Position numbers and translations under genes: made by a program
Shown here: positions 3,783 to 55,954 of the stretch, in pieces
Position numbering within the stretch: the first letter of the stretch is position 1
How the letters are laid out: every line of letters starts with the position of its first letter
Source: Alphaproteobacteria bacterium
Lineage (GTDB): Bacteria; Pseudomonadota; Alphaproteobacteria; JAJTHO01; CANGXP01
Direction: 5' to 3'
DNA: 64,000 nt
NCBI GenBank assembly: GCA_947457935.1
Contig: CANGXP010000003.1
Span: forward strand, 29,256-93,255
Notes under the pieces: generated by a model
The model's database searches: none
What the model saw: the letters and a program-made list of their open reading frames with translations, nothing else
Told to the model about the DNA's origin: nothing

Positions 3783-4407
3783 AGTGCGCCTCTCCCCCTG
3801 TGAAAGTTGCTGTTCCCGCAACGAGCACCGTTGCGCCTGCGTTAATAACATCCGCCGCATTATGCCGTGTAATGCCGCCGTCCACTTGTAAATCGGGCGA
3901 TAATCCTCGTTTGTCAAGGGCGGCGCGAATCGCGGCAATTTTCTCTAGTTGTGAGGGGATAAACGATTGTCCGCCAAATCCGGGATTAACGGACATCACC
4001 AGAATTAAGTCAACCTCTGCCCAAAGGTATTCTAACACGCTTATCGGCGTTGCGGGGTTTAGCGAAATACCTGCTTTTTTGCCAAACGATTTGATGAGTT
4101 GCAGGGTGCGGTGAACATGCGGTGTGGCTTCCGCATGAACGGTGATAATATCCGCGCCAGCATCCGCAAAATCTTTGATAAATCCGTCAACAGGCTGAAT
4201 CATCAAGTGCACATCAAGCGGTAATGTTGTGTGCGGACGTAAGGCTTTCACAACGGTTGCGCCGATGGTAATGTTCGGGACAAAATGCCCATCCATCACA
4301 TCAACGTGAATATAATCTGCGCCCGCTGCCTCAAGGGCGCGGATTTCCTCGCCCAGACGGGCAAAATCAGCAGAGAGAATCGACGGGGCAATTTTGATTG
4401 TTGTCAT
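3751..4407 (-). CDS. rpe: ribulose-phosphate 3-epimerase
   Basis: 218 aa. [21 protein letters not shown]...[14 protein letters not shown] is the canonical Rpe TIM-barrel signature. Confidence 0.93.
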
Positions 4408-6800: not shown

Positions 6801-7124
6801 ATGGATGTTAAGATTTTTCGTACTGTTCAAGGGCAAGAGCCTTTTACAGATTGGCTGTTATCGCTTCGGAATAAAATAGAGCAGGCACGCATTAGGCAAC
6901 GACTTGATAGAGTAAGTGCGGGCAATTTGGGTGATTATAAGACCGTAGGGGATGGTGTGTTTGAGCTAAGATTCTTGTTTGGGGCAGGCTATCGCGTTTA
7001 TTTCGGATTTGTTGAAGGCAGGGTTATTCTGTTGTTGGGTGGGGGAGATAAAGCAACCCAAAATCGCGACATTGAAAAAGCAAAAGCACATTGGCAGGAA
7101 TATCAACATGGACAATTTTCGTGA
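6801..7124 (+). CDS. type II toxin, RelE/ParE superfamily (HigB-like addiction module killer protein)
   Basis: 107 aa. Resembles the putative addiction-module killer family (FRTVQGQEPFTDWL...GDYK.VGDGVFELR...GYRVYFG). Its end overlaps the start of the downstream antitoxin by 17 bp. Confidence 0.75.
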   Translation: MDVKIFRTVQGQEPFTDWLLSLRNKIEQARIRQRLDRVSAGNLGDYKTVGDGVFELRFLFGAGYRVYFGFVEGRVILLLGGGDKATQNRDIEKAKAHWQEYQHGQFS

Positions 7125-7425
7125 TTTTAGAGCGTTAAATCTTTCTTTGCTGCGTGAGCCAGAAGATGCGAACGTGTATCTTCAGGTTGCGCTTGAGGAG
7201 TATGAAAATACAGGGGATACAGATGCTTTATTAAGTGTTCTGCGTGATGTAACGGAAGCGCAAGGTGGTATGACGCAAATGGCACAGAAAATCAATCGGA
7301 GTCGTCAAAGTCTTTACAAGGCTCTTTCGCCAAAAGGAAATCCACGACTTGACACCTTTTTGTTGCTGTTGCATGCTTTGGGGCTTCGTTTGGCAATTGA
7401 ACCACAACGAGCCACTTTGAAATAA
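7108..7425 (+). CDS. HigA-like antitoxin (addiction module antidote protein, HTH)
   Basis: Starts MDNFRDFRALNLSLLREPEDANVYLQVALEEYENTGD, then MTQMAQKINRSRQSLYKALS, which is an HTH. This is the typical partner of the killer protein above. Confidence 0.7.
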   Translation: MDNFRDFRALNLSLLREPEDANVYLQVALEEYENTGDTDALLSVLRDVTEAQGGMTQMAQKINRSRQSLYKALSPKGNPRLDTFLLLLHALGLRLAIEPQRATLK

Positions 7426-30865: not shown

Positions 30866-31408
30866 TTATGCCGCTAACGGAACTTGAATGTCATATTTGT
30901 TGCTGGGAAGCACATATTGTTGCGCTGTTCTTTTTGAGGCATCAATAACGATAGGTGCTTTAACATTAAGCGTCATCTGCACTTTACCGAACATTTCCCG
31001 CACGGTAACGATATGCAATAATAACAAATCGTCTTCTGCTATAGAAAATGTATTGCAAAGAGAGGCAACATCACTAGCCTCTAGCAATGCTGTTTTGGCG
31101 GTTGTGGGGAAAACAATAAACGATAGATTTTTTTCTTCTAAAGATTGCAAGATGCGGAAATTATTGGCAGCGGCGGCATTCGGCATGCTGCTCAGACCAA
31201 AGCGTGTAAATTCTGTAAGACCGATTAACCCTTGAGCAAAAGTAATAAATTGATCCGCCTCAAATTGCAGCGTACCGAATTTATTTTGTATAACAACAGC
31301 GTCTTCTTTTTGGGTAGAGGCTGTAACAGTTTTTTGGGTCATATCGCTATATCTATTCACATCTGAATAATCAGGGTTTTCGTAGGTAGCTAACGTTGCG
31401 TAATCCAT
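30866..31408 (-). CDS. fliW: flagellar assembly factor FliW
   Basis: FGTLQFEADQFITFAQGLIGLTEFTRF and NVKAPIVID...QYVL match the FliW (DUF180) family. AAGAGG Shine-Dalgarno before the 31408 start. Adjacent to flgL. Confidence 0.65.
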   Translation of the reverse strand: MDYATLATYENPDYSDVNRYSDMTQKTVTASTQKEDAVVIQNKFGTLQFEADQFITFAQGLIGLTEFTRFGLSSMPNAAAANNFRILQSLEEKNLSFIVFPTTAKTALLEASDVASLCNTFSIAEDDLLLLHIVTVREMFGKVQMTLNVKAPIVIDASKRTAQQYVLPSNKYDIQVPLAA

Positions 31409-31483
31409 AATATTATACCTCTTAAGTGTTCAAAAATTGTTAATGTTCTGTGGTCTCGCTCAATCTATTCATGGTCTATTGTT

Positions 31484-32386
31484 TTAATTCAAATATTGTA
31501 CCAAACTCATGCGTCCCATCCGTCCAATGGTGGAATAGGCTGCACTGAGTAGGGTTTCTTGGTTAGCAAGTTCACTCGTTGCTCGTAAAACGTCTGTATC
31601 TTGAATTGAGCTAATAGTTGTTGCCAACACAGTTTGATTGTCTAAATGGCGACTCTTAACGGTATCCAATGTTTTGCTTTGTGCGCCAATCACACTGATT
31701 GATTGGTTTAGCCCTGCAATAGCCTCATTAATAAGCTGCATGCCTTCCCGTAGTCTCACAGGATCTGTGGCATTTGCTTGAACAATCCGCAGCCCGCGAA
31801 TATATTTTTCAAAGGTTGAATCGCTTGCCTTTACACCGTAATCAAGATTGTAATTGGTATCAATTTTTGCGGTGAGTGTGTTCGCATCGCCTTGATAATA
31901 ATCAGTATCAGCGGTGAGAGCACTAGGAGCACTTGTAAATTTTGTTAAGTCAACAGGCGCTGTTGTGGTGCGCGTGCCTGAAAAAACATATGTATCACCG
32001 TCTTTTGTATTCAGCACGTTTGCAACTTGCTTGAGTAATTGCTCGGCTTGTTGCCCTAAGGCAGAGAAATTCGCGTTGCCGTTGTTTAAGCCTGTGACCA
32101 ATGCTGTTTTAAAAGAAATCCCGTTGTCTAACAGGGAGTTCATTTGTGTCTCCATGGTATTCATGCGGGTGGTGGTTTGCGTAATAGTTGTTACATATTG
32201 CGCGGTGCGTTCACTGGTTGATTGTAAGCCCACAAGCCTTGAGGCATCTTGGTAAATCCCTGTGTATGTTTGGGATTTTTGACCGCTGGAAATTTGCGTT
32301 TGCAAATCAAAGGCACGCTGCTGGATTTTATTCACAAATCCTTGCGTGCTGTTGAATTTTGCAAAAGTTCCTAATCTATCTAACAT
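31484..32386 (-). CDS. flgL: flagellar hook-associated protein 3
   Basis: 300 aa with flagellin-like N- and C-terminal helical regions (C-terminal LSAAYSTIGRMGRMSL). Lies downstream of flgK. Confidence 0.75.
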   Translation of the reverse strand: MLDRLGTFAKFNSTQGFVNKIQQRAFDLQTQISSGQKSQTYTGIYQDASRLVGLQSTSERTAQYVTTITQTTTRMNTMETQMNSLLDNGISFKTALVTGLNNGNANFSALGQQAEQLLKQVANVLNTKDGDTYVFSGTRTTTAPVDLTKFTSAPSALTADTDYYQGDANTLTAKIDTNYNLDYGVKASDSTFEKYIRGLRIVQANATDPVRLREGMQLINEAIAGLNQSISVIGAQSKTLDTVKSRHLDNQTVLATTISSIQDTDVLRATSELANQETLLSAAYSTIGRMGRMSLVQYLN

Positions 32387-32402
32387 AATGCGTTATCCTC
32401 GA

Positions 32403-34589
32403 TTATCCAACAAGCTGACTGAGTTCTTGGAACATGTCTGAAACCACCTTAATGATCCGCGCTGAGGCACTATAGGCGTTCTGAATTTCTGTGAGGGATG
32501 CCAACTCTGAGTCCATATTCACACCACTGGTGGAAGACCGTTGCAGTTCTAATTGGCTCGTTAGACTTTGCTGATTGTCATAGTTATCGGTGTATTGATT
32601 ATTGAGGCGGGCATTATTGCCCAAAAATAAGCTGGCATAACTGGTGAGCGATGTTTGCACATCACTAAGATCCCCTGTGGGAGCAAAAGTAGAGTTTGCA
32701 TCAAACGCGTCTGTAATGGCGTTGGCGATGCTGGCATCTCCTGCTGTAATCGCTGCAATCGGTGTGGTGATAGGCGGCGTGATCACTTGGTTATTCAGTG
32801 CGCCGCGCGTGAGAAGTTGCGGGGTATCAATAAGTTTTTGATTAACAGTGAGAGAGGTTGCAGTGTGTCTTGGATCCCGAAGGTCAAAAAATTTCGTGAG
32901 ATTGCTGCCTGTTGCCGTATCCGTTGCAGGCGGGCTTAACAGCGTCATCTCAATGCTTTCGTTCGGATTGTCCGCTTTGAGATAGAGTTTCCCATCACTG
33001 CCAAGACTGGCTGTCATGCCAATAGCAGCACCATTGATTTGATTAATAACATCACCCACACTGGCGATAGGCAGTGTTGCTAAGTTTAAATTAAAACTTG
33101 TTTGCACAACACCTGCTGCATTCGTCACACCAAAGCGCACACTGCCTGTGCCTGAAAGCGGACTTGTAATGCTAAACGTATTATTACTAACTAACTTAAC
33201 AGGATTAGAGTCGGAAAGGCTGGAGACAAAAATGTCATTTAGTCCGAAGAATTGCCCAACATTGAGATCTCTCCCCGTCACGTTTTCGATAGCAGGGGTT
33301 GTTTGTCCCGCTGCCATGCCAACAGCAATTTTATTTGCGCCGAGGGCTGCAATCGTCATTTTACCATTTGCATCAAGGGAAACACTGCCAACAGTATTAA
33401 AGGCAACACCGTTGACAGCGGTGGTAGAGGCATTAACGGCTGTGATAAAATCATTAATGGTTTTGGGGGCAGGGCTGGTGATGGTTCCTAAATCTAGGTC
33501 AACATAATCACTGTAATTGCCAGCGGCATTGGTAATGGCAATACGCATTTTTCCTGTTGCGTAAAAAGGATCACTCCCATTAAGAACGCGTGTCCCTGTA
33601 AGTGATTGTGGTGGGGGGTATGCAGTGCCTAAGTTGCTAACGGAATTCACAATGTTTTGTAATGTAGAGGAAATATTTTCTAGTTGGTTTGCCATGTTTG
33701 GCAAAACGGTATCGCGTGAATCAATAAGCCCTTTGAGCCGTCCCGTGCGGAAAGTATTGGTTAAATCAGTTGCAAGCGTGTTGTTGGCAAAATCAATTTT
33801 GTCAAACCCGCCATCTGCTTGTGTAACGGTAGGGTCAATACTTGAGACAGGAGTATATTGCAGTTTTTGAGGGGTGTTATCGATGAGCTTTGTGCCATCG
33901 TTTGTGTAGATAACAATTTCTTTATTGGCGCGCGTGAAAACTCGTATATCCATTTGTTCTGCAATTTTATTAATTTCTGCATCACGCTGATCTTCTAGGT
34001 CACCTGTGGCGATGCCCATCACGTCGTTTTTAGCAATTTTGCCGTTTAAATCATTAATGTTAATGAGAGCGGTATTGACCACTTCAATCGAGTTTGCAAC
34101 TTCTTGATCAACGTCTTGACGCAGCGACTGAATGCGGCTGCTGGCGGTATTGATTTGATTGGCAATATCTCGGGCAAGATTAACGAGTTCAACTTTTTTA
34201 ATCGGGTTGTTTGGGTCAGTTGCAACACTGGAGAAACGATTGACGAGTTTTGTAATATTCGCAGTCAGAGATGTTTGTGAGCTAACGCTTCCGAAAATAG
34301 ATTCTGTTCTTTGTGCGTAGTCTTGTTTCGCCGCATATTCTGATAGCTTTGATGTCTGGTTGCGTAACTCGAGTGCAAGACTTTCGTTTACACTGCGTGT
34401 AATGCTTGCAACACTCACACCACTGCCGATGCCTTTGTTGCCTCCAGAAACAATGCTCTCAAGATTCGCTTGCTTGCGAGTGTAGCCAACGGTATTTGCG
34501 TTCGTAATGTTGGAACTGGCAACATTAAGCTGAACCTGCGTGACGCTGATTCCTGTTAGAGCATTTTTGAGGGCAAGGTCTAGAGACAT
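32403..34589 (-). CDS. flgK: flagellar hook-associated protein 1
   Basis: MSLDLALKNALTGISVTQVQLNVASSNITNANTVGYTRKQ is the canonical FlgK N-terminus. 728 aa. Confidence 0.9.
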   Translation of the reverse strand: MSLDLALKNALTGISVTQVQLNVASSNITNANTVGYTRKQANLESIVSGGNKGIGSGVSVASITRSVNESLALELRNQTSKLSEYAAKQDYAQRTESIFGSVSSQTSLTANITKLVNRFSSVATDPNNPIKKVELVNLARDIANQINTASSRIQSLRQDVDQEVANSIEVVNTALININDLNGKIAKNDVMGIATGDLEDQRDAEINKIAEQMDIRVFTRANKEIVIYTNDGTKLIDNTPQKLQYTPVSSIDPTVTQADGGFDKIDFANNTLATDLTNTFRTGRLKGLIDSRDTVLPNMANQLENISSTLQNIVNSVSNLGTAYPPPQSLTGTRVLNGSDPFYATGKMRIAITNAAGNYSDYVDLDLGTITSPAPKTINDFITAVNASTTAVNGVAFNTVGSVSLDANGKMTIAALGANKIAVGMAAGQTTPAIENVTGRDLNVGQFFGLNDIFVSSLSDSNPVKLVSNNTFSITSPLSGTGSVRFGVTNAAGVVQTSFNLNLATLPIASVGDVINQINGAAIGMTASLGSDGKLYLKADNPNESIEMTLLSPPATDTATGSNLTKFFDLRDPRHTATSLTVNQKLIDTPQLLTRGALNNQVITPPITTPIAAITAGDASIANAITDAFDANSTFAPTGDLSDVQTSLTSYASLFLGNNARLNNQYTDNYDNQQSLTSQLELQRSSTSGVNMDSELASLTEIQNAYSASARIIKVVSDMFQELSQLVG

Positions 34590-34602
34590 TGTTTAGTGTT
34601 CC

Positions 34603-35076
34603 CTAAAGACTTTGATTAAGGGCAACAGACATTGACCCTTGCGCCACGCCTGCATGGCGATAAACACCGCGTTGAGTTTTTCCACTACGGTTATAGGCGG
34701 TTAAGGGAGATTGTTGTTCTGTGACAGCATTGCGAATGGCTTCTAAAACAAACTGGCGGCTGTCGCGTGCGGCGCTAAGAGCGCGTTTGTTTTCTTTTGT
34801 CACGCGACCATAAAGTGCCATAACTTCCGCAAGGTGCTGTTTTTGCTCGGCAGAAATTTCCTGTAGCCAATCAAGATTGCTTTGAAACTCAAGGATGAGT
34901 TTTTCATATGCTTGAAACAGAATATTTTTTGATTCTTGTAAAGGTACAATCGAGACAACGTCTTGTTTTCGCAAGAAATCTGTTTCTTGTTGTAGCACTT
35001 GAATAAGGCGATAGGTCAACTCCAGTAGGGTGTTGATTTTCGCGCTTGATGATAAATTTGTATTTTCCTCACTCAT
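34603..35076 (-). CDS. FlgN-like flagellar export chaperone (putative)
   Basis: 157-aa helical protein placed between the rod-binding protein and flgK, which is the usual FlgN position. Confidence 0.45.
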   Translation of the reverse strand: MSEENTNLSSSAKINTLLELTYRLIQVLQQETDFLRKQDVVSIVPLQESKNILFQAYEKLILEFQSNLDWLQEISAEQKQHLAEVMALYGRVTKENKRALSAARDSRQFVLEAIRNAVTEQQSPLTAYNRSGKTQRGVYRHAGVAQGSMSVALNQSL

Positions 35077-35384
35077 TATTTTCTCTGAGCCTCCTCTTGT
35101 AAACGAATCATTTCTGTTTTCACTGCATCAGCTATGCCAAGTTGTCCTGTTGCCGCGATATTCTTGCCGTATTCTGTCACCATGAAGGAACGGAAGGTTT
35201 TTTCGCCTTGTCCGCCGCCAAAAGTGCTGTCTGTATCAATGCCTTCAAAGATGAGAGACAGCATTTGACTCAGGAACATGCCTTCAAATTCTTTAGCTTT
35301 TTCCTCTACGTTTTTAAGCTGCGGATTAGGCGCGGTGAAAGGGGTGTTGTTCAAAGCAAGCGTTGCGGTTTCAAACGTGTTCAT
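35076..35384 (-). CDS. flgJ: flagellar rod-binding protein (FlgJ N-terminal domain only)
   Basis: 102 aa. KEFEGMFLSQMLSLIFEG matches the rod-binding Rod_bind domain. Immediately downstream of flgI. Confidence 0.7.
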   Translation of the reverse strand: MNTFETATLALNNTPFTAPNPQLKNVEEKAKEFEGMFLSQMLSLIFEGIDTDSTFGGGQGEKTFRSFMVTEYGKNIAATGQLGIADAVKTEMIRLQEEAQRK

Positions 35385-36499
35385 TACATCACCTCAATTT
35401 CAGCTTGCAGTGCGCCTGCTGCTTTGATGCTTTGCAGAATGGAAATAAGATCCCTTGGGCCAACACCAAGGGCATTGAGTCCTGTTACCAGTTCTTGAAG
35501 ATCAACGCCTTCCCGCACAATACCGAGTTGTTTGTCTGTATCTTCATCAACTTGGATATTGGTGCGGTCAACAATCGCTGTTTGTCCTGTTTGGGCAAAA
35601 GCATTGGGTTGGGAGACTTGCGGGGTTTCTGTCACACGAATGGTCAGGTTGCCTTGGGCAATCGCCACCGTGCTAATTTTAACATTCTCGCCAATAACAA
35701 TAATCCCTGATTTTTCATCAATCACCACTTTAGCAGGCAAATCAGGCTGCACAGGGAGTTGTTCAATGCGGGTAATAAGCCCCACGGGGTTGTTGGCGTA
35801 ATCATTGGGTAGATTCACAACCACCGTGCCAGAATCTTGGGATTCTGCCGCTTGCACGCCTAAATCTTGGTTGATAACGCTGGCAATGCGGCGTGCGGTG
35901 GTGAAATCAGGGTTGCGTAAGGAAATACGCAGCGGGTTCAACTGCTTCATATCAAAGGGAATTTCTTGTTCCACAATCGCGCCGCTGGCAATACGCCCAT
36001 TTGTGGGCGTGCCTTTGGTAACACTGGCTGCTGCACCACTGGCGGTAAAGCCGCCAATCGCAATGGGGCCTTGCGCCACAGCATACACTTCCCCATCAGC
36101 ACCCATCAGCGGGGTGACGATAAGCGTGCCGCCTTGCAAACTAGACGCATCGCCAATTGCAGAAACAGTCACATCAATACGGTTGCCTTGACGGGCGAAA
36201 GACGGCAAGGTTGCTGTTACCATCACAGCGGCAATATTGTTTGTTTTCAGGTTGTTATCCCGTGCATTAATACCAAGGCGTTCCAACATCCCCACGATGC
36301 TTTCTTTAGTGAATACCGATTTTGTAAGACTATCGCCCGTTGCGTTTAACCCCACAACCAGACCATAGCCCACCAGCATGTTATCGCGCACGCCTTCAAA
36401 ATTGGTGATGTCCTTCACGCGTGTGCCCGCTGATGCTGGCAACGTGGGGACGTTGAGCAACAGGGCTGCACTGATAACGAGTGAGAAAAATTTTTGCAT
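35384..36499 (-). CDS. flgI: flagellar P-ring protein
   Basis: 371 aa with a signal peptide. [30 protein letters not shown] is canonical FlgI. Confidence 0.95.
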   Translation of the reverse strand: [371 protein letters not shown]

Positions 36500-46094: not shown

Positions 46095-46904
46095 ATGGAA
46101 TATAGCGGTATTTATCGAGAGGTACAAATTTGTTCCTCTGGAACAGAGAAATCTCAAGAAGACCTAAAATTTCAAGAAGCATTAAAAATTGCAAGCCGCA
46201 TTTGGTGCGAGGCAACGGGCAATGATTGCCTGCCCAAGACTCATAAACATGCTGCTCCCTTATACCATCATATCCCCGATTATCCCACTATTCTTGACCA
46301 AGCGATTCAAGCCGCAGAAAAGCAAGACGCTTTTGTAATACTAGTTTATCAACCAATAGGGACGCATACGAGTGCAGAAAAATTGCCTTTATGGGCATTT
46401 GACGAAGAAATAGCAAAACAGCGGCTTGTGCCTGTTTCGTGTGCCTTACTGTGCGAAGGATTGCCGCCTCACAAAAACTATTTAGTGGGGGCTTTGCCCG
46501 TAGCAGAATGTAATCTATGGTATGGGGGACGCTTTGCAACGCTCTCGCAATATGGTCAACAAGGCAACTCTAAATTGTTGTGGAATGCAGCAATGCGAGA
46601 AGTTTTTGAGACGAGAGGTTCAGATCAACTCATTTTTTCAAGACGTGTGGGAGAGAACGATAGTAGCGGGAATGTTAACCCTCATGGCTATAAAGATGGT
46701 TTAGTGGCGTGGTATACACGCGAATTTGGCAGCCCAACCGTCATTCCTGTTCCCGAGCAAACCAATGCCGAAACAGGAGAACTGGAGAAAAGAGGGCTAC
46801 TAGAAGCTGTTTACACCTATTCGGCTCAAGCCTATTTTGAAAAACTACAAGAACGTGTTGCTGCAGCAAAAAATATCCGCAGTATGGTGGTGATAGCGCG
46901 TTAA
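46095..46904 (+). CDS. hypothetical protein (no recognisable family)
   Basis: 269-aa ORF interposed between lptE and holA, where those genes are normally adjacent. No motifs recognised. Confidence 0.45.
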   Translation: MEYSGIYREVQICSSGTEKSQEDLKFQEALKIASRIWCEATGNDCLPKTHKHAAPLYHHIPDYPTILDQAIQAAEKQDAFVILVYQPIGTHTSAEKLPLWAFDEEIAKQRLVPVSCALLCEGLPPHKNYLVGALPVAECNLWYGGRFATLSQYGQQGNSKLLWNAAMREVFETRGSDQLIFSRRVGENDSSGNVNPHGYKDGLVAWYTREFGSPTVIPVPEQTNAETGELEKRGLLEAVYTYSAQAYFEKLQERVAAAKNIRSMVVIAR

Positions 46905-47006
46905 CTATTTTCCCGCTAAATATCTGAAATTCATCAAAATTCGTTTTTGCCGATTTTCAGAAATTTGGCTCTATCCTGCCGTGGAAACAATGTTTCACGT
47001 GAAACA

Positions 47007-47074
47007 TATTTACAGCTTTATGTAAATTTAGTACACCAATCCTCATGAAAATTAACGATTCCGCCGCGGGTCGC
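47007..47074 (+). repeat. direct repeat copy 1 (duplicated holA promoter/start segment)
   Basis: 47-bp perfect match (tgtaaatttagtacaccaatcctcatgaaaattaacgattccgccgc) plus imperfect flanks to 48398-48465. Contains the ATG and first 9 codons of holA. Confidence 0.85.
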
Positions 47075-47107
47075 TGTATTCAAGCTGTAAATTCTATCGT
47101 TTTATAA
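47045..47107 (+). pseudogene. 20-codon remnant of the holA 5' end (MKINDSAAG...), duplicated
   Basis: Identical to the first 9 codons of holA at 48436, then diverges to a stop after 20 codons. Confidence 0.6.
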
Positions 47108-47120
47108 CAAATGATGGCGT

Positions 47121-47184
47121 AGTATAGTTAAGTATAGTTAAGTATAGTTAAGTATAGCGTGTTATAGTATAGTTAGACTATACT
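47121..47184 (+). repeat. iteron-like tandem repeats (AGTATAGTTA x3 plus degenerate copies) ending in inverted repeat AGTATAGttagaCTATACT
   Basis: Directly visible in the sequence; lies 20-80 bp upstream of the ATPase gene start. Confidence 0.8.
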
Positions 47185-47204
47185 CGTATAAAAAGGATAT
47201 ACTT

Positions 47205-48377
47205 ATGGATCCCGTACGCAATCCCTTTGCTCCTGGTGCTGGCAATCCCCCGCCTGAATTGGCAGGGCGAGACTCTATCTTACACGCAGCAGACATTGCG
47301 TTGCAGCGTATTTTGCTGGGCAGACACAGTAAATCCCAAATTCTCTTGGGTTTACGCGGCGTTGGAAAGACAGTTCTTCTCAGAAAATTGGAAGCAATGG
47401 CGCAAGGGCATGGGTATCAGACCTCATTCATTGAGGCACCTGAGAATAAATCCCTTGTGGAACTCCTCTATCCCAAGATTCATCAAGTGCTTCGTAAGTT
47501 ATCGAGCATTGAAAATGCAAAAATGATGAGTCTTAATGCAATGAGAACACTGCGTTCTTTTGCAAAAACATTCAAAATCTCTATCGAAGATATTTCTATT
47601 TCGGTTGATCCTGAAATAGGGAGTGCTGATAGCGGCATATTAGAATATGATCTCAGCGAGCTTTTTATTCGTGTGGGAGAAACAGCAAAAGCAGCTGGCA
47701 AAGGCTGGTGTCTTTTTATTGATGAAGTACAATATCTTTCCAAAGAAGAGCTATCAGCCCTTATAGTTGGCATTCATCACAGTAATCAGAAAAGCCTTCC
47801 TATTATGTTTTTTGGCGCCGGTTTGCCACAAGTTGCGGCGTTATCGGGAGACGCTAAGTCGTATGCAGAGAGGCTTTTTGATTATCCGCCTGTTGGTGCG
47901 CTTGATGCTGCCGCCGCTGTTGCTGCAATTAAACAACCTATTTTAGAGGAAGAAGAGCGTATTACAGAGGAAGCACTCGTCAGCATCATCGAAAAAACCA
48001 AAGGATACCCCTTTTTCTTACAAGAATGGGGTTTCCAAGTTTGGAATATTGCTGATCAATCGCCCATTAGTCCGCAAGATGTTGAACAAGCCACGCCCAT
48101 TGCCTTAAACAGGCTAGACGATAGTTTTTTTCGTGTACGATTTGAGCGATTAACTCCCAAGGAACGTGACTATGTTTGCGCAATGGCGCGGCTGGGGAAA
48201 GGCCCTTATCGCTCCGCAGATGTTGCTGATATAATGGGAGAAAATATACAGAAACTAGGTTCTTGCCGTTCACAGATTATCAATAAAGGGATGATTTACA
48301 GCCCCTCACACGGAGACATCGCTTTCACTGTTCCGCTGTTTGAGGAGTATTTGATGCGTACGCATGGAATAAAGTAG
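47205..48377 (+). CDS. STAND/AAA+ superfamily ATPase with C-terminal winged-helix-like region (archaeal-ATPase/COG1672-like)
   Basis: N-terminal NPFAPGAGNPPPELAGRDS motif (NPFxPGxP...GR), Walker A GLRGVGKT, Walker B LFIDEVQ, and GYPFFLQ downstream. 390 aa. Confidence 0.7.
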   Translation: MDPVRNPFAPGAGNPPPELAGRDSILHAADIALQRILLGRHSKSQILLGLRGVGKTVLLRKLEAMAQGHGYQTSFIEAPENKSLVELLYPKIHQVLRKLSSIENAKMMSLNAMRTLRSFAKTFKISIEDISISVDPEIGSADSGILEYDLSELFIRVGETAKAAGKGWCLFIDEVQYLSKEELSALIVGIHHSNQKSLPIMFFGAGLPQVAALSGDAKSYAERLFDYPPVGALDAAAAVAAIKQPILEEEERITEEALVSIIEKTKGYPFFLQEWGFQVWNIADQSPISPQDVEQATPIALNRLDDSFFRVRFERLTPKERDYVCAMARLGKGPYRSADVADIMGENIQKLGSCRSQIINKGMIYSPSHGDIAFTVPLFEEYLMRTHGIK

Positions 48378-50133: not shown

Positions 50134-50733
50134 CTAGGGGCAGTTAGGAATTATTTCCTTAACTTCCGCTATAATGACGGGTGGGTTTTTAGTCCCGTCT
50201 AAAGAGCGAACAGTCTGCTCGTAAAAACGACCTTGTAAGTCGAAAAACACGTTGCTAGATGTGTCTTGGGCAGGGAATGCGCCCACATTGCGTGCTCGAG
50301 CAATCGTGAACAGTTCATTCCCATTTTTAGTGGCAAGCGTCACTAAAGAAAGATGGTCTGGCAAAGATTTCACCGAAATGGTCACGGCACCAGACAAGTC
50401 TAGTCTTGCAACAAGAGTGGTTGGGCAAGATTTATATCTTGTACCGTCCACTTTTAGCGCGCGACCAGTATTCGATCCATAGACGGACTTGGGAGTTCCA
50501 AGCCCTTCAAATCGAAACCAAAGAGCTGCTCGTTTTTCTTGAGACCCATCGATAGTGACTTCACCATCGATTATGTTGATACCAACTAATGGCTTGATAG
50601 CCTTGTCTCCAATCGTTCCCGAAATGGGATCGTTTTTAACATCATCTACAGACACGGGTCTGGCAGATACGGCAGGAACGAAAGCAACCAGAGCTAGAGC
50701 AAGAGCAAGATAAAAAAGAGCTTTGATGTTCAT
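50134..50733 (-). CDS. hypothetical secreted protein (signal peptide)
   Basis: Starts MNIKALFYLALALALVAFVPAVSA, followed by a ~175-aa beta-rich mature domain with no recognised family. Start placed at MNIKAL (50733). Confidence 0.5.
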   Translation of the reverse strand: MNIKALFYLALALALVAFVPAVSARPVSVDDVKNDPISGTIGDKAIKPLVGINIIDGEVTIDGSQEKRAALWFRFEGLGTPKSVYGSNTGRALKVDGTRYKSCPTTLVARLDLSGAVTISVKSLPDHLSLVTLATKNGNELFTIARARNVGAFPAQDTSSNVFFDLQGRFYEQTVRSLDGTKNPPVIIAEVKEIIPNCP

Positions 50734-50770
50734 TGTATTTGACGCGTAGCGAAGTGAGTAATTCAACTTA

Positions 50771-50786
50771 ATATATATATATATAT
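50771..50786. repeat. (AT)8 dinucleotide microsatellite in promoter region
   Basis: atatatatatatatat lies 40-55 bp upstream of the secreted-protein gene start, on the minus strand. Confidence 0.8.
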
Positions 50787-51038
50787 TAGTCAAGAATTTA
50801 ATTTATTATTTATGTATGGCTTGCGCGGAACGATGACGCTGCGTGTCTTTGCCTTGTAAAGGATAACCCATAAGCATTGTAAGGGTGGATACCCGACACC
50901 GTGCTTTTGCAAGGCAAATCCCCCAAAAGTAGAGGGATTTGGCAAAATCAGGTTCGAGTATGACACACGCGGAGAGTTGTAAAGACGAGGCGTTGCTTTT
51001 CAAGAAATTAACAGCCGTATTACGGGCTGACGAGCTTA

Positions 51039-51320
51039 CCAGACCCCGTCATGCGACGGGGTGACGGTTATACCACGGACGTCGCCCCGTGCTTGTCACG
51101 GGGTCTGGTTTTTAGATAAACGTGGTGCAGTATAGTGCCAGACCCCGTCATGAAGACGGGGTGACGATTGTATCAATGAAAGTCTATCCAGACCCCGCAC
51201 TTCCCCTCCTTTTAGTCGGGGTAGCGGAGTGACGTTCGGTGGTGATTGAAAGAATTACCAGACCCCGTGACAAGCACGGGGCGACGGACTTTGGTATCGT
51301 CCGTCACCCCATGACAAGCG
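51039..51320. repeat. cluster of 5-6 REP-like palindromic units (CCAGACCCCGT-N7-ACGGGGTGACGG), one pair in inverted BIME-like orientation
   Basis: Units at 51039-51067, 51081-51108 (inverted), 51138-51166, 51188-51226 (degenerate), 51258-51286, and a partial one at 51301-51320, at irregular spacing of 50-100 bp. Confidence 0.75.
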
Positions 51321-51341: not shown

Positions 51342-54300
51342 CTACTTCCACACCGCGGCAATAATCCCGTCAAGCGCGGCACTCACATTAGTAGGGATAA
51401 CATCAGTTCTTGCAGGCGGCGTTGCGCCAAACGCACTCATGGCAGTAACAAGCTGTTGCACATTACTTGCCGCAAGTGTTTTGCCATCGGCAAGAGTGAA
51501 GGCATCAATACGACTGTTTACATCAGTGTACCAATTTTTCACCACCACAGCGTCGCTCGTTCCCACAATCGAAATTTTTAGGTCTTTATTCGCCTGAGTG
51601 AACCACAATTCTTTTGCATCGGTAACATTGGTGAGTTGTAGGGTATCCGTCGTTGTTAAGGAAGCGTCACTTTTTGTATTGACGATGGTATCTTGGTCAT
51701 AGCCCTTGCCAAAATTATAGGTAACGTCGCCTGCATCACCGTATAATGTGTCGTTTCCTGCACCGCCATCAAGTGTTGTACCGTTGCTAGAAGGCGCAAA
51801 AGGCAAGGTGACAGCGGCGGCGAGAGCAGGCTCTGGAGCAGTTGCAGCGGGTGCAAGTGTTTTCGCACCTACAGTGCTAGGCACATTAAACACGAGTTGA
51901 CTTCTGCCAAACAAGAAATTTACGCCTGTGCGGAGCAACCCGCTTTGGCTGGTGACAACGCCCGTTCTGCCGTTGGTTGTTTCAACACGCGCTGACTTAT
52001 TATCAAGCACTGTGCCGTTGACAGAGACACTACCCACATAAAGATTGCGGTCTTTACCTTTGCCGCCCCATAAATCGTTCGTGAACTCAATTTGAACGCG
52101 GGAAGACGGTTTAATACCGAAATCACCTTTGAGGGTGAATTCTTGCATGTCCGTTTTACCGTAAATGCTATTGACAGCGGTTGCGCCTTGAATTTGCTTG
52201 CCGTCTACCAACACACGGAATTCAGGCTTGCCCTTGTAATGGTCACCAGAGAGTTTGATAACAAGCGTATCAATGCTTGGCAGTGGTGGGGGTGGGGGGG
52301 GTACGCCACCGCCATCGGTAGGGGGCGTGACACTATTTTGTTCGCCGTTGGCATAAAGAGTGTCATTACCGCCGCCGCCATAAAGACTGTTATTGCCCGC
52401 ACCACCTTTAAGAACATCGTTACCGCTGTTGCCGTTATCAAGTGCGAAGCTCAGCGCACCATTTTCATAGAGGCGATATTGCCCCAGTTGTGCGCCAAAA
52501 CGCTTCATGTTATAGACGGCTTCTGTGCCTGCAAGGGGGAGTCCGTTAATAGCAACAGAATCCAGCCACAAGTTTCTGTCTTGGCGGGTTGCGTTGACGT
52601 ATTCATCATTCAAATATTCAACATCTAGTTTGCCCGCTAACACAGGCGTATCAAGGTTGAAGGTGAAGGTTTGCCGCTGTCCTTTGCTGTATTCAGCGGA
52701 GACTGTTTGCACAGCCCCGACTTGCTTGCCGTCTAACAACAAACGGAATTGCGCGTTGCCGTTGATGGTTGCATCGCCAGAGGCTTTAATCGTGATGCTG
52801 CTAATGGGCACACCATCTCCATAAAGGATATCATCGCCTGTGCCGCCATAAAGTTTGTCATCCCCACTGCCGCCCACGAGCGCGTCATTGCCTCTGCCAC
52901 CATAGAGGGTGTCGTTTCCTTGGTCGCCGAAGAGTGTATCATTGTCAGAAAGGGGTTTTGTGGTGGTTGCCGCTTGCTGTTGAAAGAGAGTATCCGCAAT
53001 CGGCAACTCTGTTTTTAGGTCTCCGTAGAGTGTATCATCGCCTTTGCCACCAAGAAGCAAATCATTGCCTAAGCCGCCGATGAGCAAATCATTGCCATCG
53101 CGTCCCGCCAACATATCATCGCCGATTTTCGCATCGAGCAGCTTTTGCTTCTCTGCGGTGGAAAGGGCGGCATTGTTGAGAATGCTGTTGAGTTCTGTCT
53201 CTGTTACAGCATCCCCTGTAAGAGAATCATTGCCTTGCAGCCCGTTGATAACATCGTCCCGTCCTGTGCCTGTAATGGAGAATGCGGTATCAAGGGCGGT
53301 ATGACGGTCTGCAATGGTGTTGTTGGTGTTGGTAAAAGTACCTGCCACGCCATCAAAACTAATAGGGATGCGGGTGCCCAAAATTTGGTTGTCTCGCGCT
53401 ATAACATTGCTGGGTGCAACCACAAAACCGGGGAAAGGGTTAACGCGAATACCATATTCATGTTTGTAGGCGGGGATAAAGTCAGCAGCAATCCCTTCAT
53501 TACCAAGAATAGTATTGCCTTCAATCACCGCGCCATTGGTGCTTTGCACAACAATATAGCCGCTACCATCACCACGCCAGTTTTGATAGCCTTGCACAGT
53601 GTTGTCTTTAATAACAACATCATAGACGGTTTGCGAGGGGTTTGCGAATTTGTTGACGGGGTGGAATTTAATTGCGTCTTTACCAAAATCTTTGACAAAA
53701 TTGTTGTTGATGACAACGTGATTTTGGTCTTCTATTTTAATACCGCCGCCGTTGACGTTTTTAATGGTGTTAAACTCAATAATCGCGCCACTGTGCGGCG
53801 GTTCTAAAGAAGAATCGCCCCCTGTTGCAGTACCTGTAACCAAAATACCTGCAGTGCCCATGGTGGCACGCGTGCCGTTTATGGCGGTGCCTAAGCCTTT
53901 ATCGCCATCGCCGATGATGGTGTTGTGTCCCGCATAAATGTTTTCAGCGCGTTTGAATTCAATCCCGCCATGCTGCCAGCTTGTAAGCGTGTTACCGATA
54001 GCACTGGGATTGTCTGTTTCAATAAACGCCATTGCGTTGCCCACCGTGTTGCTGATGGTGTTGCTGCTGGCTGTAACGGTGTCACTGTTGGTAAAACGAA
54101 TGCCGTGAATATAGGTATATTTTGCGGGTAGATTGGCTTGATTGCCGTCAATGTTGAGACCATTAACGGTCACATTGCGGGCGTTGTTAAAATCAAGCAT
54201 CCCTTCAATAGGGAGCATAGGTTTATAGGTTGTGGCGGCTTTAATGGTCGCACCAAGTCCTGTTACCGTTTGGTTTTGCCAGCCCTCAAAGGTGAGGCGA

Positions 54301-54473
54301 CCGCTAATAGTATAAGTGCCACTGGAGAAATTTAAGCTTAGGTTGTTGGCGGCTGCGTGTTTAATGGCAGCTTGAATGGCTTTGGTATCATCAACAATAC
54401 CATTACCAACAGCACCAAAGGCTTTGACATCAAGAATATTTCCAGCATTGCTGGCAGGCAGAACTGTACTCAT
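51342..54473 (-). CDS. large secreted RTX-repeat protein with N-terminal right-handed parallel beta-helix (pectate-lyase/AlgE A-module-like) and two ~90-aa internal duplicated domains
   Basis: 1043 aa. N-terminal beta-helix repeats (NGLNIDGNQ..., IGDGDKGLGTAINGTRAT). Multiple GGxGxDxUx nonapeptides (GGLGNDLLLGGKGDDTLYGD, GGRGNDALVGGSGDDKLYGGTGDDILYGDG, GGAGNNSLYGGGGNDTLY, GGAGNDTLYGDAG). Duplicated modules (ITIKASGDATINGNAQFRLLLDGKQVGAV... and LVIKLSGDHYKGKPEFRVLVDGKQIQGA...). No N-terminal signal peptide, consistent with type I secretion. Confidence 0.8.
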   Translation of the reverse strand: MSTVLPASNAGNILDVKAFGAVGNGIVDDTKAIQAAIKHAAANNLSLNFSSGTYTISGRLTFEGWQNQTVTGLGATIKAATTYKPMLPIEGMLDFNNARNVTVNGLNIDGNQANLPAKYTYIHGIRFTNSDTVTASSNTISNTVGNAMAFIETDNPSAIGNTLTSWQHGGIEFKRAENIYAGHNTIIGDGDKGLGTAINGTRATMGTAGILVTGTATGGDSSLEPPHSGAIIEFNTIKNVNGGGIKIEDQNHVVINNNFVKDFGKDAIKFHPVNKFANPSQTVYDVVIKDNTVQGYQNWRGDGSGYIVVQSTNGAVIEGNTILGNEGIAADFIPAYKHEYGIRVNPFPGFVVAPSNVIARDNQILGTRIPISFDGVAGTFTNTNNTIADRHTALDTAFSITGTGRDDVINGLQGNDSLTGDAVTETELNSILNNAALSTAEKQKLLDAKIGDDMLAGRDGNDLLIGGLGNDLLLGGKGDDTLYGDLKTELPIADTLFQQQAATTTKPLSDNDTLFGDQGNDTLYGGRGNDALVGGSGDDKLYGGTGDDILYGDGVPISSITIKASGDATINGNAQFRLLLDGKQVGAVQTVSAEYSKGQRQTFTFNLDTPVLAGKLDVEYLNDEYVNATRQDRNLWLDSVAINGLPLAGTEAVYNMKRFGAQLGQYRLYENGALSFALDNGNSGNDVLKGGAGNNSLYGGGGNDTLYANGEQNSVTPPTDGGGVPPPPPPLPSIDTLVIKLSGDHYKGKPEFRVLVDGKQIQGATAVNSIYGKTDMQEFTLKGDFGIKPSSRVQIEFTNDLWGGKGKDRNLYVGSVSVNGTVLDNKSARVETTNGRTGVVTSQSGLLRTGVNFLFGRSQLVFNVPSTVGAKTLAPAATAPEPALAAAVTLPFAPSSNGTTLDGGAGNDTLYGDAGDVTYNFGKGYDQDTIVNTKSDASLTTTDTLQLTNVTDAKELWFTQANKDLKISIVGTSDAVVVKNWYTDVNSRIDAFTLADGKTLAASNVQQLVTAMSAFGATPPARTDVIPTNVSAALDGIIAAVWK

Positions 54474-54793
54474 ACAATTACCTCAATATGTTTTTAAATA
54501 AAAAATAAAAAATATTTTGCAAGTTATCTCTGCTATGCAGAAACTCCGAGGGGCGGAGTAAGGGAGAGCAATATTTTGTCTAGCTATATATCTCATTAAA
54601 CAGGATATTTCTTAACAAACAGATAAGGGAAATCACTTCAGGGAGATTTTTTAGAGTTATTATTAATCAAAATCCTCCAACTGAATGCAGAAGATAGGTT
54701 TTCTCTTCCATCGTGCATTTGCTTATTGAGCAGAAAATGAGTCGTGTTAAAAAACACAACTGTAAATCTTTATTTTATTGCGTATAAGACTGT

Positions 54794-55954
54794 ATGACCC
54801 ATTCGATTCACTCAATCGCCCTTTACATGCCTAGTTTATTGGGAGGCGGGGCAGAGCGCGTGATGTTTAACCTTGCGCAAGAATTTGTGGCACGGGGTAT
54901 TAAGGTGACACTCGTGGTGGATAGATTGCCGAGTTCTTACGGTAAGAATCTTTCTAGCTATCAGTTCCCCATTGTGGAAGAGCAGGGGCAGCAACTCTTA
55001 GATTTAGGCGCATTGAAACTGCCATTTGTATTGTTAAATGCAAAAAAAACGATATTTGCCTTGCCGAAATTACTAAAATTTTTGCGTAAAAATCGCCCTG
55101 ATATACTTTTGGCTGCATTACCTTTTAACAATTTTAATGCGGCTTTAGCCACGTTATTTCCCGCCGCCAAACAAACACGTATTTTCTTAAGTGACCATGC
55201 AGCGATGCAAATGGACGGCAAAAGCAGGGTTTTAAAGATATTGCGACGGTGTTTGTATCCGTTGGCGCACGGCGTTATTGGCGTATCACGCGGGGTGACA
55301 GAGGGGATGCAGCGCATTGTGCCCCGCCTTAAAAATTGTGTCACCATTTATAATCCCATTTTATCTTTGGATTATTCCACGCTCTATGAAACACCTGTTG
55401 ATACAAGCTTTTTGACAGGCTTTCCCCGCCCATTTATTATGTCAGCAGGGCGGTTTAGTGCCCAAAAAGATTTTCAAACACTGTTAAAAGCGTTTGCCCT
55501 GTTCGCCGCAAACAATACAGGAACGCTGGTGTTATTTGGCGATGGTGAGTTGCGTGCAGAGCTAGAAGGATTGGCAAAAAAACTAGGTATTGCCGACAAA
55601 GTGGTGTTTGCAGGGTTTAAAAACCCCCTTTATCCGTTTTATAAACTTGCGGATGTCTTCGTGCTTGCGTCAAACTTTGAAGGGTTCGGGAATGTGTTGG
55701 TGGAAGCCATGGCAACGCAAACCCCTGTGGTGAGTAGTGATTGCCCGTCAGGCCCTTCTGAGATTCTGATAGGCGGAAAATATGGGGAGCTTGTGCCGAT
55801 TGGCGACGCACACGCTATGGCAAAGGGGATTATCAAAGCCCTCGCCACGCCGCCTACAAAACGTGTTGAATTACAAAAACGGGCAGAAGATTTTATGTGC
55901 GGGACGATTGCGGAAGAGTATTTGCGGTTTTTTGCGCAATCAACACCACGTTAA
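54794..55954 (+). CDS. GT4-family glycosyltransferase (likely LPS core-related)
   Basis: 386 aa. The C-terminal EGFGNVLVEAMA motif is the GT4 E-X7-E signature. Convergent with hldE. Confidence 0.85.
   Translation: MTHSIHSIALYMPSLLGGGAERVMFNLAQEFVARGIKVTLVVDRLPSSYGKNLSSYQFPIVEEQGQQLLDLGALKLPFVLLNAKKTIFALPKLLKFLRKNRPDILLAALPFNNFNAALATLFPAAKQTRIFLSDHAAMQMDGKSRVLKILRRCLYPLAHGVIGVSRGVTEGMQRIVPRLKNCVTIYNPILSLDYSTLYETPVDTSFLTGFPRPFIMSAGRFSAQKDFQTLLKAFALFAANNTGTLVLFGDGELRAELEGLAKKLGIADKVVFAGFKNPLYPFYKLADVFVLASNFEGFGNVLVEAMATQTPVVSSDCPSGPSEILIGGKYGELVPIGDAHAMAKGIIKALATPPTKRVELQKRAEDFMCGTIAEEYLRFFAQSTPR

Follow-up and report, generated by a model that had tools for sequence, protein, structure and literature searches.

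The 64,000-nucleotide stretch of DNA analyzed here (the window), from an uncultured alphaproteobacterium, encodes an RTX exoprotein that is best explained as a calcium-dependent carbohydrate-active enzyme exported by a type I secretion system (T1SS), most likely an endo-acting depolymerase that cleaves a bacterial polysaccharide as a lyase or a hydrolase (probability about 0.6). The substrate is probably an extracellular or cell-surface polysaccharide that the producer itself makes by way of GT4-type glycosyltransferases. The open reading frame of 1043 residues is real and was placed exactly by the first-pass annotation; GAGG lies 9 nt upstream of its ATG, and the annotation of ENA contig k141_346769 includes the same protein. 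With a pI of 4.77 (4.8 rounded) and no cysteine, the protein has the acidic, low-cysteine character of RTX substrates of T1SS, and inspection of the N-termini showed that a signal peptide is absent both from it and from four close homologues, all of which start at the β-helix cap. From the N-terminus, the domain order is β-helix, RTX blocks I–III, CBM60 module 1, RTX block IV, a linker, CBM60 module 2, and the last RTX block with its cap and tail. The features of the locus are as follows.

51342..54473, minus strand: RTX exoprotein gene, open reading frame with ATG start, 1043 residues, acidic, cysteine-free, no N-terminal signal peptide.
53274..54440, minus strand: residues 12-400, right-handed parallel β-helix, putative catalytic domain (Pfam, AF2, Foldseek).
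53667..53738, minus strand: residues 246-269, putative active centre, 'GGIKIED' and 'FGKDAIK' (family alignment, AF2 strand register, alignment with the RbmB E253 rung).
52818..53243, minus strand: residues 411-552, RTX blocks I–III (1+3+4 GGxGxDxUx nonapeptides) with short helical or linker spacers between them (Pfam, PDB sequence search, sequence).
52434..52811, minus strand: residues 555-680, CBM60 module 1, paralogue of module 2, with the invariant ND...DRN signature (Pfam CBM60).
52353..52433, minus strand: residues 681-707, RTX block IV, three nonapeptides, the middle one degenerate (Pfam, sequence).
52281..52331, minus strand: residues 715-731, Gly/Pro-rich linker, GGGVPPPPPPLPS (sequence).
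51876..52280, minus strand: residues 732-866, CBM60 module 2 (Pfam; AF2 pLDDT 88; match to vCBM60 2XHH).
51345..51776, minus strand: residues 900-1043, last RTX block, HCBP_related/CyaA-block-V-like cap and conserved tail '...DGIIAAVWK' (CyaA match, Pfam, conservation).
54474..54793: AT-rich divergent intergenic region of 320 bp between the exoprotein and GT4 genes (sequence).
54794..55954, plus strand: GT4 glycosyltransferase gene, divergent to the exoprotein gene (profile match, loci of relatives).

The N-terminal ~400 residues had been proposed to form a parallel β-helix, and this proved right: the AF2 model built from an 18-sequence family alignment is a right-handed β-helix (pLDDT 88, pTM 0.89), and Pfam Beta_helix matches residues 228-391 with 41.4 bits, while the match of Pect-lyase_RHGA_epim to residues 15-194 is borderline (28.0 bits, cutoff 27). 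From residue 12 onward the domain carries the cap motif 'DVKAFGAVGNG..DDT' of the pectate-lyase-3 superfamily. K246, E248, D266 and K269 are invariant in 18/18 aligned family members, together with an Asn ladder, and E248 and D266 are the only invariant acidic residues of that alignment. In the AF2 strand register, K246/E248 and D266/K269 occupy neighbouring rungs, at equivalent strands, and the members bearing these residues belong to two phyla and share 24-55% identity with the exoprotein. On the alignment and the model, we regard K246/E248 and D266/K269 as the putative active centre.

Among structures in the PDB, Foldseek ranked RbmB (9ozd) first for the catalytic domain (E 1e-11, TM 0.68/0.75, rmsd 3.8 Å), with AlgE4, GH28 enzymes and tailspikes ranking lower, and RbmB was also matched by profile (E 4e-17, profile positions 11-261). 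RbmB is an exopolysaccharide lyase acting on the VPS of Vibrio cholerae (PDB 9OZD/9OZL; PMC12993940), in which the general base K227 is activated by E253 and for which the reported site of action is the periplasm (PMC12993940). The two proteins share the N-terminal cap and a genetic linkage to polysaccharide biosynthesis genes, RbmB being a single β-helix of ~370 residues. The active-site rungs of RbmB, bearing E253 and R282, line up with those that hold the invariant pairs K246/E248 and D266/K269 in the exoprotein family. At residue level, the HMM alignment puts K227 on a hydrophobic 'GILVT' strand, without conservation, and E253 opposite K246, a replacement by Lys; identity in this alignment is ~17%, and its register may be off by 1-2 residues. 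Unlike RbmB, which is reportedly periplasmic and has neither RTX repeats nor a CBM, the exoprotein is built for T1SS export.

The middle of the protein had been described as holding two duplicated, carbohydrate-binding-like modules of ~90 residues. Their duplication and nature stand, since the modules at residues 555-680 and 732-866 share 35% identity (E 9e-16) and Pfam CBM60 (PF16841) matches the protein in two stretches with 129.4 bits (cutoff 28.2); their length is actually ~125-135 residues. The CBM60 Pfam core is 91 residues, and the alphaproteobacterial copies add a C-terminal extension of ~40 residues. The module alignment contains the invariant CBM60 signature N68-D69...D77-R78-N79. 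When module 2 was modelled by AF2 (pLDDT 88), the sole PDB match with E<1e-3 was vCBM60 2XHH (E 1.6e-5, TM 0.62/0.70), the calcium-dependent module of a xylanase; a phmmer search of the PDB with module 1 as a single sequence gave no match and did not reach 2XHH. The likeness to vCBM60 thus consists of a profile match far over threshold and a predicted fold that finds 2XHH uniquely. Compared to the xylanase module, the copies in the exoprotein are duplicated, extended, interleaved with RTX β-rolls and joined to a β-helix, and glycosyltransferase genes adjoin. In the literature searched, no joint mention of CBM60 and RTX was found. The CBM60 is fused C-terminal to the catalytic domain in the RTX-type proteins, and N-terminal to it in shorter, non-RTX proteins of the Deinococcus type.

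At least four blocks of GGxGxDxUx repeats had been placed in the C-terminal half. The repeats are indeed of RTX type (Pfam HemolysinCabind, 101 bits in 6 stretches) and comprise 11-12 nonapeptides in all, grouped in five blocks and starting at residues 411; 457/466/475; 516/525/534/543; 681/(690)/699; and 903, but they are interleaved with the CBMs rather than gathered in one half. Residues 901-1017 match the last RTX repeats (block V) and capping structure of CyaA (PDB 7usl/5cvw/6sus; 60 bits, domain E 1e-15), and Pfam HCBP_related is found at the C-terminus (38 bits). The kinship with CyaA (PDB 5CVW, 6SUS, 7USL) is confined to this C-terminal folding and secretion module; the exoprotein contains no toxin, acylation or pore-forming region. 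Partial matches to NCBIfam RTX_toxin and EhxA models were rejected as a sign of toxin identity: they score 46-95 bits where the cutoffs are 1000-2000, and they cover the RTX and cap regions only. The C-terminal 140 residues are conserved among 5 homologues, including the '(I/L)(I/L)AAVWK' tail, and residues 900-1043 presumably serve as the T1SS secretion signal and as the nucleus of folding.

The window contains no ABC, MFP or OMP export genes, every ORF of at least 500 residues in its 64 kb having been identified, and T1SS genes were found neither in a further ~20 kb of contig read across both flanks (~84 kb in all) nor beside any of the 4 homologues examined. Both the earlier observation that type I secretion genes are not adjacent and its corollary, an exporter encoded elsewhere, are therefore upheld; no T1SS was seen because a single contig of the genome was covered. 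The stress put on this absence is not supported: the Rhizobium PrsDE system exports many proteins, most of them from genes unlinked to those of the exporter, and a T1SS substrate need not be encoded beside its transporter (PMC2275737).

The catalytic domain belongs to a rare family that has no name. An exhaustive search of 1.84 billion representatives yielded four close clusters, together with CBM60-bearing relatives in Deinococcus; a word-indexed search with residues 1-421 gave 4 matches, the query protein itself not among them. A scan of metagenome contigs with the family profile was dominated by the generic cap motif 'GAxGDGxTDD' and recovered distant loci of the pectate-lyase-3 superfamily and no true member. 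A scan of genome contigs gave 5 loci, which were used for context and are too few for statistics.

The neighbours named by the first-pass annotation were all confirmed, namely the GT4 glycosyltransferase, HldE (515 bits against NF008454) and a FolC-type Mur ligase. It had considered the exoprotein out of place among them, a view that is not supported, as the GT4 adjacency recurs in relatives. In a second alphaproteobacterial lineage, the homologue P0005 (41% identical to the exoprotein) is flanked by a GT4 that is 42% identical to that of the window, and in three Deinococcus species a GT4-AsnB-GT4-GT4-β-helix operon has the family member as its last gene. A further homologue, P0006, is flanked by a Wzx-like flippase and an additional RTX-CBM60 protein without β-helix. 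Within the DNA read at each locus, GT4 was absent at 3/5 alphaproteobacterial loci (P0006, P0007 and P0008). Overall, the position of GT4 beside the exoprotein gene looks non-random, though GT4 and HldE in the window could be merely LPS-core genes kept by synteny. The promoters of the exoprotein and GT4 genes presumably lie in the divergent region 54474..54793; a consensus scan for promoters and terminators around the exoprotein gene gave no signal above shuffled background.

The polysaccharide at issue might instead be foreign, the exoprotein being a secreted degrader of plant or algal cell-wall polysaccharide of the xylan, galactan or pectin type that serves nutrition. All CBM60 ligands reported to date are glycans of plant type, and Pfam labels the family 'xylan-binding'; this counts against a self-made polysaccharide and would indicate a foreign one, as would the match of the module model to vCBM60. 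The catalytic domain belongs to a pectate-lyase-like superfamily, the polygalacturonase ADPG2 and GH28 enzymes are among the sequence and structure matches, and the window also contains a heparinase II/III-like gene, a sign of some glycan-degrading capacity. GH28 polygalacturonases carry conserved catalytic Asp residues on successive rungs, in NTD, GDD and RIK motifs. In the 18-sequence alignment, the rungs preceding K246, on which the catalytic Asp residues of a GH28 enzyme would be expected, lack any invariant Asp, and membership of GH28 was rejected on this ground. In addition, family members reside beside or inside glycosyltransferase clusters, not among sugar-uptake or catabolic genes, and the top structural match, RbmB, is an EPS lyase whose gene lies in an EPS cluster. 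We consider a nutritional role of this kind unlikely.

The first-pass annotation had left the choice between a polysaccharide-modifying enzyme and a surface-layer protein. As a non-catalytic surface protein, it would be an adhesin, an S-layer-like protein or a scaffold of the matrix that leaves the cell through a T1SS; its CBM60 modules would anchor it to the producer's glycan, and its β-helix would serve as a binding surface, as in PfbA. That β-helix adhesin is among both the sequence and the structure matches, T1SS substrates commonly include adhesins and S-layer proteins of the RTX type, and the RTX-CBM60 protein lacking a β-helix beside P0006 suggests a purely binding role for the pairing of RTX and CBM60. 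However, strict invariance of K/E and D/K on adjacent rungs across two phyla, at 24-55% identity, is a pattern that an active site would show, CBMs are typically attached to enzymes, and the members from Deinococcus are small proteins without RTX repeats, encoded inside biosynthetic operons. The enzyme half of the earlier alternative is thus the best reading, and the S-layer or adhesin half is disfavoured because of the invariant charged cluster on the β-helix and the CBM fusion in two phyla; we judge it distinctly unlikely.

The likeness to alginate epimerases raised earlier holds for architecture and fails for specific kinship. AlgE1-7, the mannuronan C5-epimerases of Azotobacter vinelandii, likewise place an N-terminal β-helix before RTX modules, depend on calcium and are exported by T1SS without a signal peptide, and the A-modules of AlgE4 and AlgE6 were recovered by profile search (E ~1e-16, the match lying mostly in the N-terminal cap and the first rungs) and also by Foldseek (2pyg/5lw3, E ~2e-9, TM 0.52-0.60). 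The fold match to AlgE4 (TM 0.56/0.60) is poorer than that to RbmB. Catalytic roles in AlgE4 are reportedly held by Y149, D152, H154 and D178. In a weak (15 bits) profile-sequence alignment, these correspond to N145, A148, F149 and R175, the motif 'YGFDPHE' being aligned to 'NAMAFI', and a DPH(D/E)-like motif was found nowhere in the N-terminal domain. AlgE proteins have no CBM60, and their R-modules (2ml3/2agm/2ml1) matched at noise level (E 0.06-0.44), only through generic RTX repeats. With 0/4 residues of the YG(F/I)DPH(D/E)/D178 tetrad kept, the family's own invariant residues 3-4 rungs nearer the C-terminus and no alginate genes in the window, AlgE membership was rejected, and a secreted C5-epimerase of this type, or a bifunctional epimerase/lyase, acting on a polyuronate is very improbable.

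For a calcium-dependent depolymerase of a bacterial polysaccharide, the domain order suggests the following course. The protein would leave the cell unfolded, C-terminus first, through an ABC/MFP/TolC exporter encoded elsewhere that recognizes the conserved C-terminal ~60-140 residues. Outside the cell, folding driven by Ca2+ would begin at the CyaA-block-V-like cap and proceed to the five RTX β-rolls, and the two modules of CBM60, a family described as calcium-dependent, would fold and bind glycan. The N-terminal β-helix would emerge last and act on the bound chain in a groove centred on K246/E248 and D266/K269. Such a role may be analogous to that of Rhizobium PlyA and PlyB, EPS glycanases secreted by PrsDE that combine a pectate-lyase/PL6-like domain with a calcium-dependent lectin domain (PMC9298526, PMC2275737). 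PlyA, PlyB and PlyC of Rhizobium leguminosarum are the closest functional analogue by described architecture and biology, not by sequence, as alphaproteobacterial T1SS substrates with a catalytic and a calcium-dependent carbohydrate-binding domain that cleave the producer's own EPS at its surface. They differ in their cadherin-like Ra/CHDL lectin in place of CBM60 and in their size of ~50-56 kDa, and no Ply protein was among the named matches of the family search.

As a tentative proposal, which we hold to be somewhat less probable than its negation, the N-terminal domain may found a new and very rare PL or GH family with a K-x-E / D-x-x-K centre, coupled to GT4 polysaccharide pathways in Deinococcus and Alphaproteobacteria. 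CBM60 would here recognize a bacterial exopolysaccharide or LPS glycan, not plant xylan, and the alphaproteobacterial form would have been refitted with RTX β-rolls for type I export, giving an enzyme of dispersal or chain-length control with its CBMs set between β-rolls. The impact would be modest, because the principle of a T1SS-exported RTX β-helix glycan enzyme is already established. RbmB, PlyA/B and AlgE-type enzymes control the chain length and dispersal of biofilm matrix, and a new specificity could therefore serve as a matrix-degrading tool. If correct, the proposal would define an uncharacterised family of polysaccharide-processing enzymes, extend CBM60, known from plant-biomass enzymes, to the biology of bacterial surface glycans, and describe one compact molecule in which Ca2+ coordinates export, folding, substrate binding and possibly catalysis.

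The exoprotein gene lies on the minus strand at 51342–54473 and encodes 1043 amino acids from an ATG with a GAGG 9 nt 5' of it; translation of the plus strand over the same interval is riddled with stops. The first-pass annotation had placed this ORF correctly, and the strand is our correction. A 104-kb metagenome contig in ENA and a copy at NCBI are also annotated with this protein, which belongs to a cluster of five sequences at 90% identity whose sole source name is 'Ca2+-binding RTX toxin-like protein'. The window's GroEL shares 85% identity with that of MAGs labelled Alphaproteobacteria/Holosporales and about 78–80% with that of Azospirillum, which places the host among uncultured Alphaproteobacteria. 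The parts of the exoprotein were delineated as follows.

Domain features of the exoprotein (residue positions)
15–194: Pect-lyase_RHGA_epim (Pfam, 28 bits, barely over the cutoff)
228–391: Beta_helix (Pfam, 41 bits)
Six stretches: HemolysinCabind (Pfam, 101 bits)
Two stretches: CBM60 (Pfam, 129 bits)
964–1000: HCBP_related (Pfam)
411; 457/466/475; 516/525/534/543; 681/(690)/699; 903: GGxGxDxUx units (motif scan)

The motif scan resolved five RTX blocks, where at least four had first been noted, but these are interleaved with the CBM modules at residues 555–680 and 732–866 rather than confined to the C-terminal half, and one poly-Pro and one Ala/Pro linker separate parts of the protein. The two modules are true paralogues (35% identity, E 9e-16), so that the proposed duplication of carbohydrate-binding modules stands, at a length of about 125–135 aa and not about 90. 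Residues 901–1017 align to CyaA over its last RTX block and its C-terminal cap (domain E 1e-15), and the final 140 residues are conserved across relatives, with the terminal motif '(I/L)(I/L)AAVWK'. The acidic protein (pI 4.8) contains no Cys, and because its N-terminus is directly the 'DVKAFGAVGNG..DDT' β-helix cap motif, it shows no signal peptide on inspection. The reported absence of nearby secretion genes was upheld: neither an ABC exporter gene nor one of HlyD type or TolC type was found in the window, where every ORF of at least 500 aa was identified, in about 20 kb of further contig, or beside any of the four close homologues. Such unlinked T1SS genes are not unusual, since Rhizobium PrsDE exports many substrates from unlinked loci, including PlyB, the RTX β-helix protein pRL90140 and an RTX glycosyl hydrolase (PMC2275737).

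A word-indexed homologue search with the β-helix domain returned next to no matches. Exhaustive phmmer against 1.84 billion cluster representatives recovered four close clusters (P0005–P0008; 950–1213 aa) with 51–55% identity across this domain, below which scores fell steeply to E ~1e-28, with only 31 matches below 1e-10. All four share one architecture of β-helix, RTX, two or three CBM60 modules and HCBP_related. The next tier comprises proteins of 480–810 aa, of which those named by source are from Deinococcus, and many carry a single CBM60 N-terminal to the same β-helix. No functional name was found among family members, and a scan of 185,579 species genomes for the family signature 'FGKDGIK..P' yielded only five loci, four from Deinococcus and one from an Alphaproteobacteria MAG. 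In an 18-sequence alignment, K246 and E248 ('GGIKIED'/'TKTEG') and D266 and K269 ('FGKDxIK') are invariant, and an Asn ladder is formed by N184, N235, N258, N291 and N320. AF2 modelling from this alignment gave a confident right-handed β-helix (pLDDT 88, pTM 0.89), bearing out the N-terminal fold first proposed. In the model, K246/E248 (strand 243–248) and D266/K269 (strand 268–271) occupy equivalent strands on adjacent rungs, a predicted placement that matches the pattern expected of a putative active-site groove.

For the CBM60 modules, a single-sequence search reached no solved CBM60 structure. Modelled by AF2 (pLDDT 88), module 2 had exactly one significant PDB match, 2XHH (E 1.6e-5, TM 0.62/0.70), which is the founding CBM60 structure. 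An alignment of 17 family modules showed an invariant N-D...D-R-N signature; alphaproteobacterial modules carry a C-terminal extension of about 40 aa, whereas Deinococcus modules do not. Among the papers of the library searched, none mentioned both CBM60 and RTX. Beside P0006, the segment 8560–11605 of its locus encodes a protein of 485 aa that has RTX repeats and CBM60 but lacks a β-helix, and then a Wzx-type (Polysacc_synt) flippase; thus, the RTX and CBM60 cassette also exists independently.

The top Foldseek match in the PDB was RbmB, the Vibrio cholerae VPS lyase (E 1e-11, TM 0.68/0.75, rmsd 3.8 Å), followed by AlgE4/AlgE6 A-modules (TM 0.52–0.60), GH28 exo-polygalacturonases, tailspikes and the adhesin PfbA. 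In RbmB, K227 is the general base, E253 activates K227, R282 is a possible acid and Ca2+ assists (PMC12993940). With the RbmB chain numbering offset by +28, anchored on W138, R167, K227, R231, E253 and R282, profile alignment puts E253 opposite family K246, R282 just past the K269 strand, and K227 on the hydrophobic 'GILVT' strand. This alignment suggests that the putative active-site location is common to RbmB and the family and that the residues differ. The match to RbmB, together with the invariant Lys residues, speaks for β-elimination; E248/D266 could alternatively be an acid/base pair for hydrolysis. GH28 membership fails because the 18-sequence alignment has no invariant Asp on the rungs preceding the family's invariant cluster.

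The window is ordinary chromosomal DNA. On one side of the exoprotein gene are leuS, lptE, two unknown or AAA genes, holA and an unknown 219-aa ORF; on the other are GT4 (plus), hldE (minus), folC and ccmF.

Further features of the contig
2118–3938, minus: heparinase II/III-like protein (Hepar_II_III_C, 158 bits) between rpe and purH, another polysaccharide-acting gene amid housekeeping genes
About 6801–7425: small toxin-antitoxin-like pair, Gp49/HI1420-type
30866–36499: flagellar cluster flgI, flgN, flgK, flagellin-like gene, fliW, with no unusual insertion
46095–48377: two extra genes between lptE and holA, local GC down to ~0.42
50134–50793, minus: 219-aa ORF downstream of the exoprotein gene, with no Pfam or NCBIfam match
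51039–51290: five clustered REP/BIME-like palindromic units in the exoprotein gene's 3' intergenic region
L093 16521–17159, past the window end: small toxin-antitoxin-like pair, YoeB/Phd

The two extra genes may be an inserted island or defence-like module; one is an ORF of 269 aa without a family match, and the other encodes an AAA_16/AAA_22 (ORC/Cdc6-like) ATPase of 390 aa. A 199-aa call within the 219-aa ORF opens with the signal-peptide-like 'MNIKALFYLAL', and a (TA)n run (~50772–50789) lies directly upstream of its start, inside the longer, TTG-started ORF. The palindromic unit is CCAGACCCCGT-N6-7-ACGGGG, in both orientations and including one 30-nt perfect inverted pair; its 10-mer core has no copies elsewhere in the 64-kb window (0.05 expected by chance). 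P0008 also adjoins flgI, probably coincidentally.

The neighbourhood of hldE, GT4 and folC had been considered an unusual setting, a view that comparison with relatives does not support for GT4, since GT4 linkage recurs at P0005 and in three Deinococcus species. A pair of GT4 genes precedes P0005, which is 41% identical to the exoprotein over its full length. One gene of the pair is divergent and shares 42% identity with the window GT4, and a GT9 is nearby. P0006 adjoins the Wzx-type flippase and second RTX-CBM60 protein. The family member forms the end of a conserved operon in D. hohokamensis, D. navajonensis and D. marmoris.

Deinococcus operon GT4 – AsnB-like amidotransferase – GT4 – GT4 – β-helix
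L009: 4241–11323
L010: 4271–10993
L011: 639–10930

Sugar-nucleotide epimerase and dehydrogenase genes adjoin the operon in D. hohokamensis (L009). P0007 and P0008 had no neighbours of these kinds in the available flanking DNA. The GT4 neighbour of the exoprotein gene appears meaningful.

The best-supported reading is that the exoprotein is a type-I-secreted, Ca-dependent polysaccharide-processing enzyme whose target is a glycan of bacterial origin, probably one that the producer itself makes. It would be exported C-terminus first through an unlinked T1SS, and Ca would then trigger folding of the cap and RTX β-rolls, as Bumba and colleagues reportedly established for CyaA in 2016. The CBM60 modules would attach to the glycan, which would be cleaved or modified by the β-helix groove centred on K246/E248/D266/K269. 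The nearest functional counterparts of the exoprotein are PlyA/PlyB of Rhizobium. These EPS glycanases are secreted by a T1SS and work at the cell surface, and in them a pectate-lyase/PL6-type domain is joined to a Ca-dependent lectin domain (PMC9298526).

That the enzyme instead degrades a plant glycan is unlikely, and a non-catalytic adhesin or S-layer-like protein, as first suggested, is rather improbable. A true AlgE-type epimerase is highly doubtful: AlgE4 'SGYGFDPHEQ...VADY' aligns to 'VGNAMAFIETD...KR' of the exoprotein, in which counterparts of Y149, D152, H154 and D178, which we take to be the catalytic residues, are absent (0/4), the family's invariant cluster lies 3–4 rungs farther along the helix, and R-module similarity reaches only E 0.06–0.44, so that the AlgE-like layout stands and AlgE membership fails. 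The roles of these four residues were reportedly described by Rozeboom and colleagues in 2008. The original observation is confirmed and its interpretation partly supported.

RTX-exported β-helix glycan enzymes, the kind to which the exoprotein would belong, are already known. What is new is a rare, unnamed, putative catalytic family with, as judged from sequence, its own invariant K-x-E/D-x-x-K centre, the fusion of the family's β-helix to CBM60 in two phyla, and the interleaving of CBM60 modules with RTX β-rolls.
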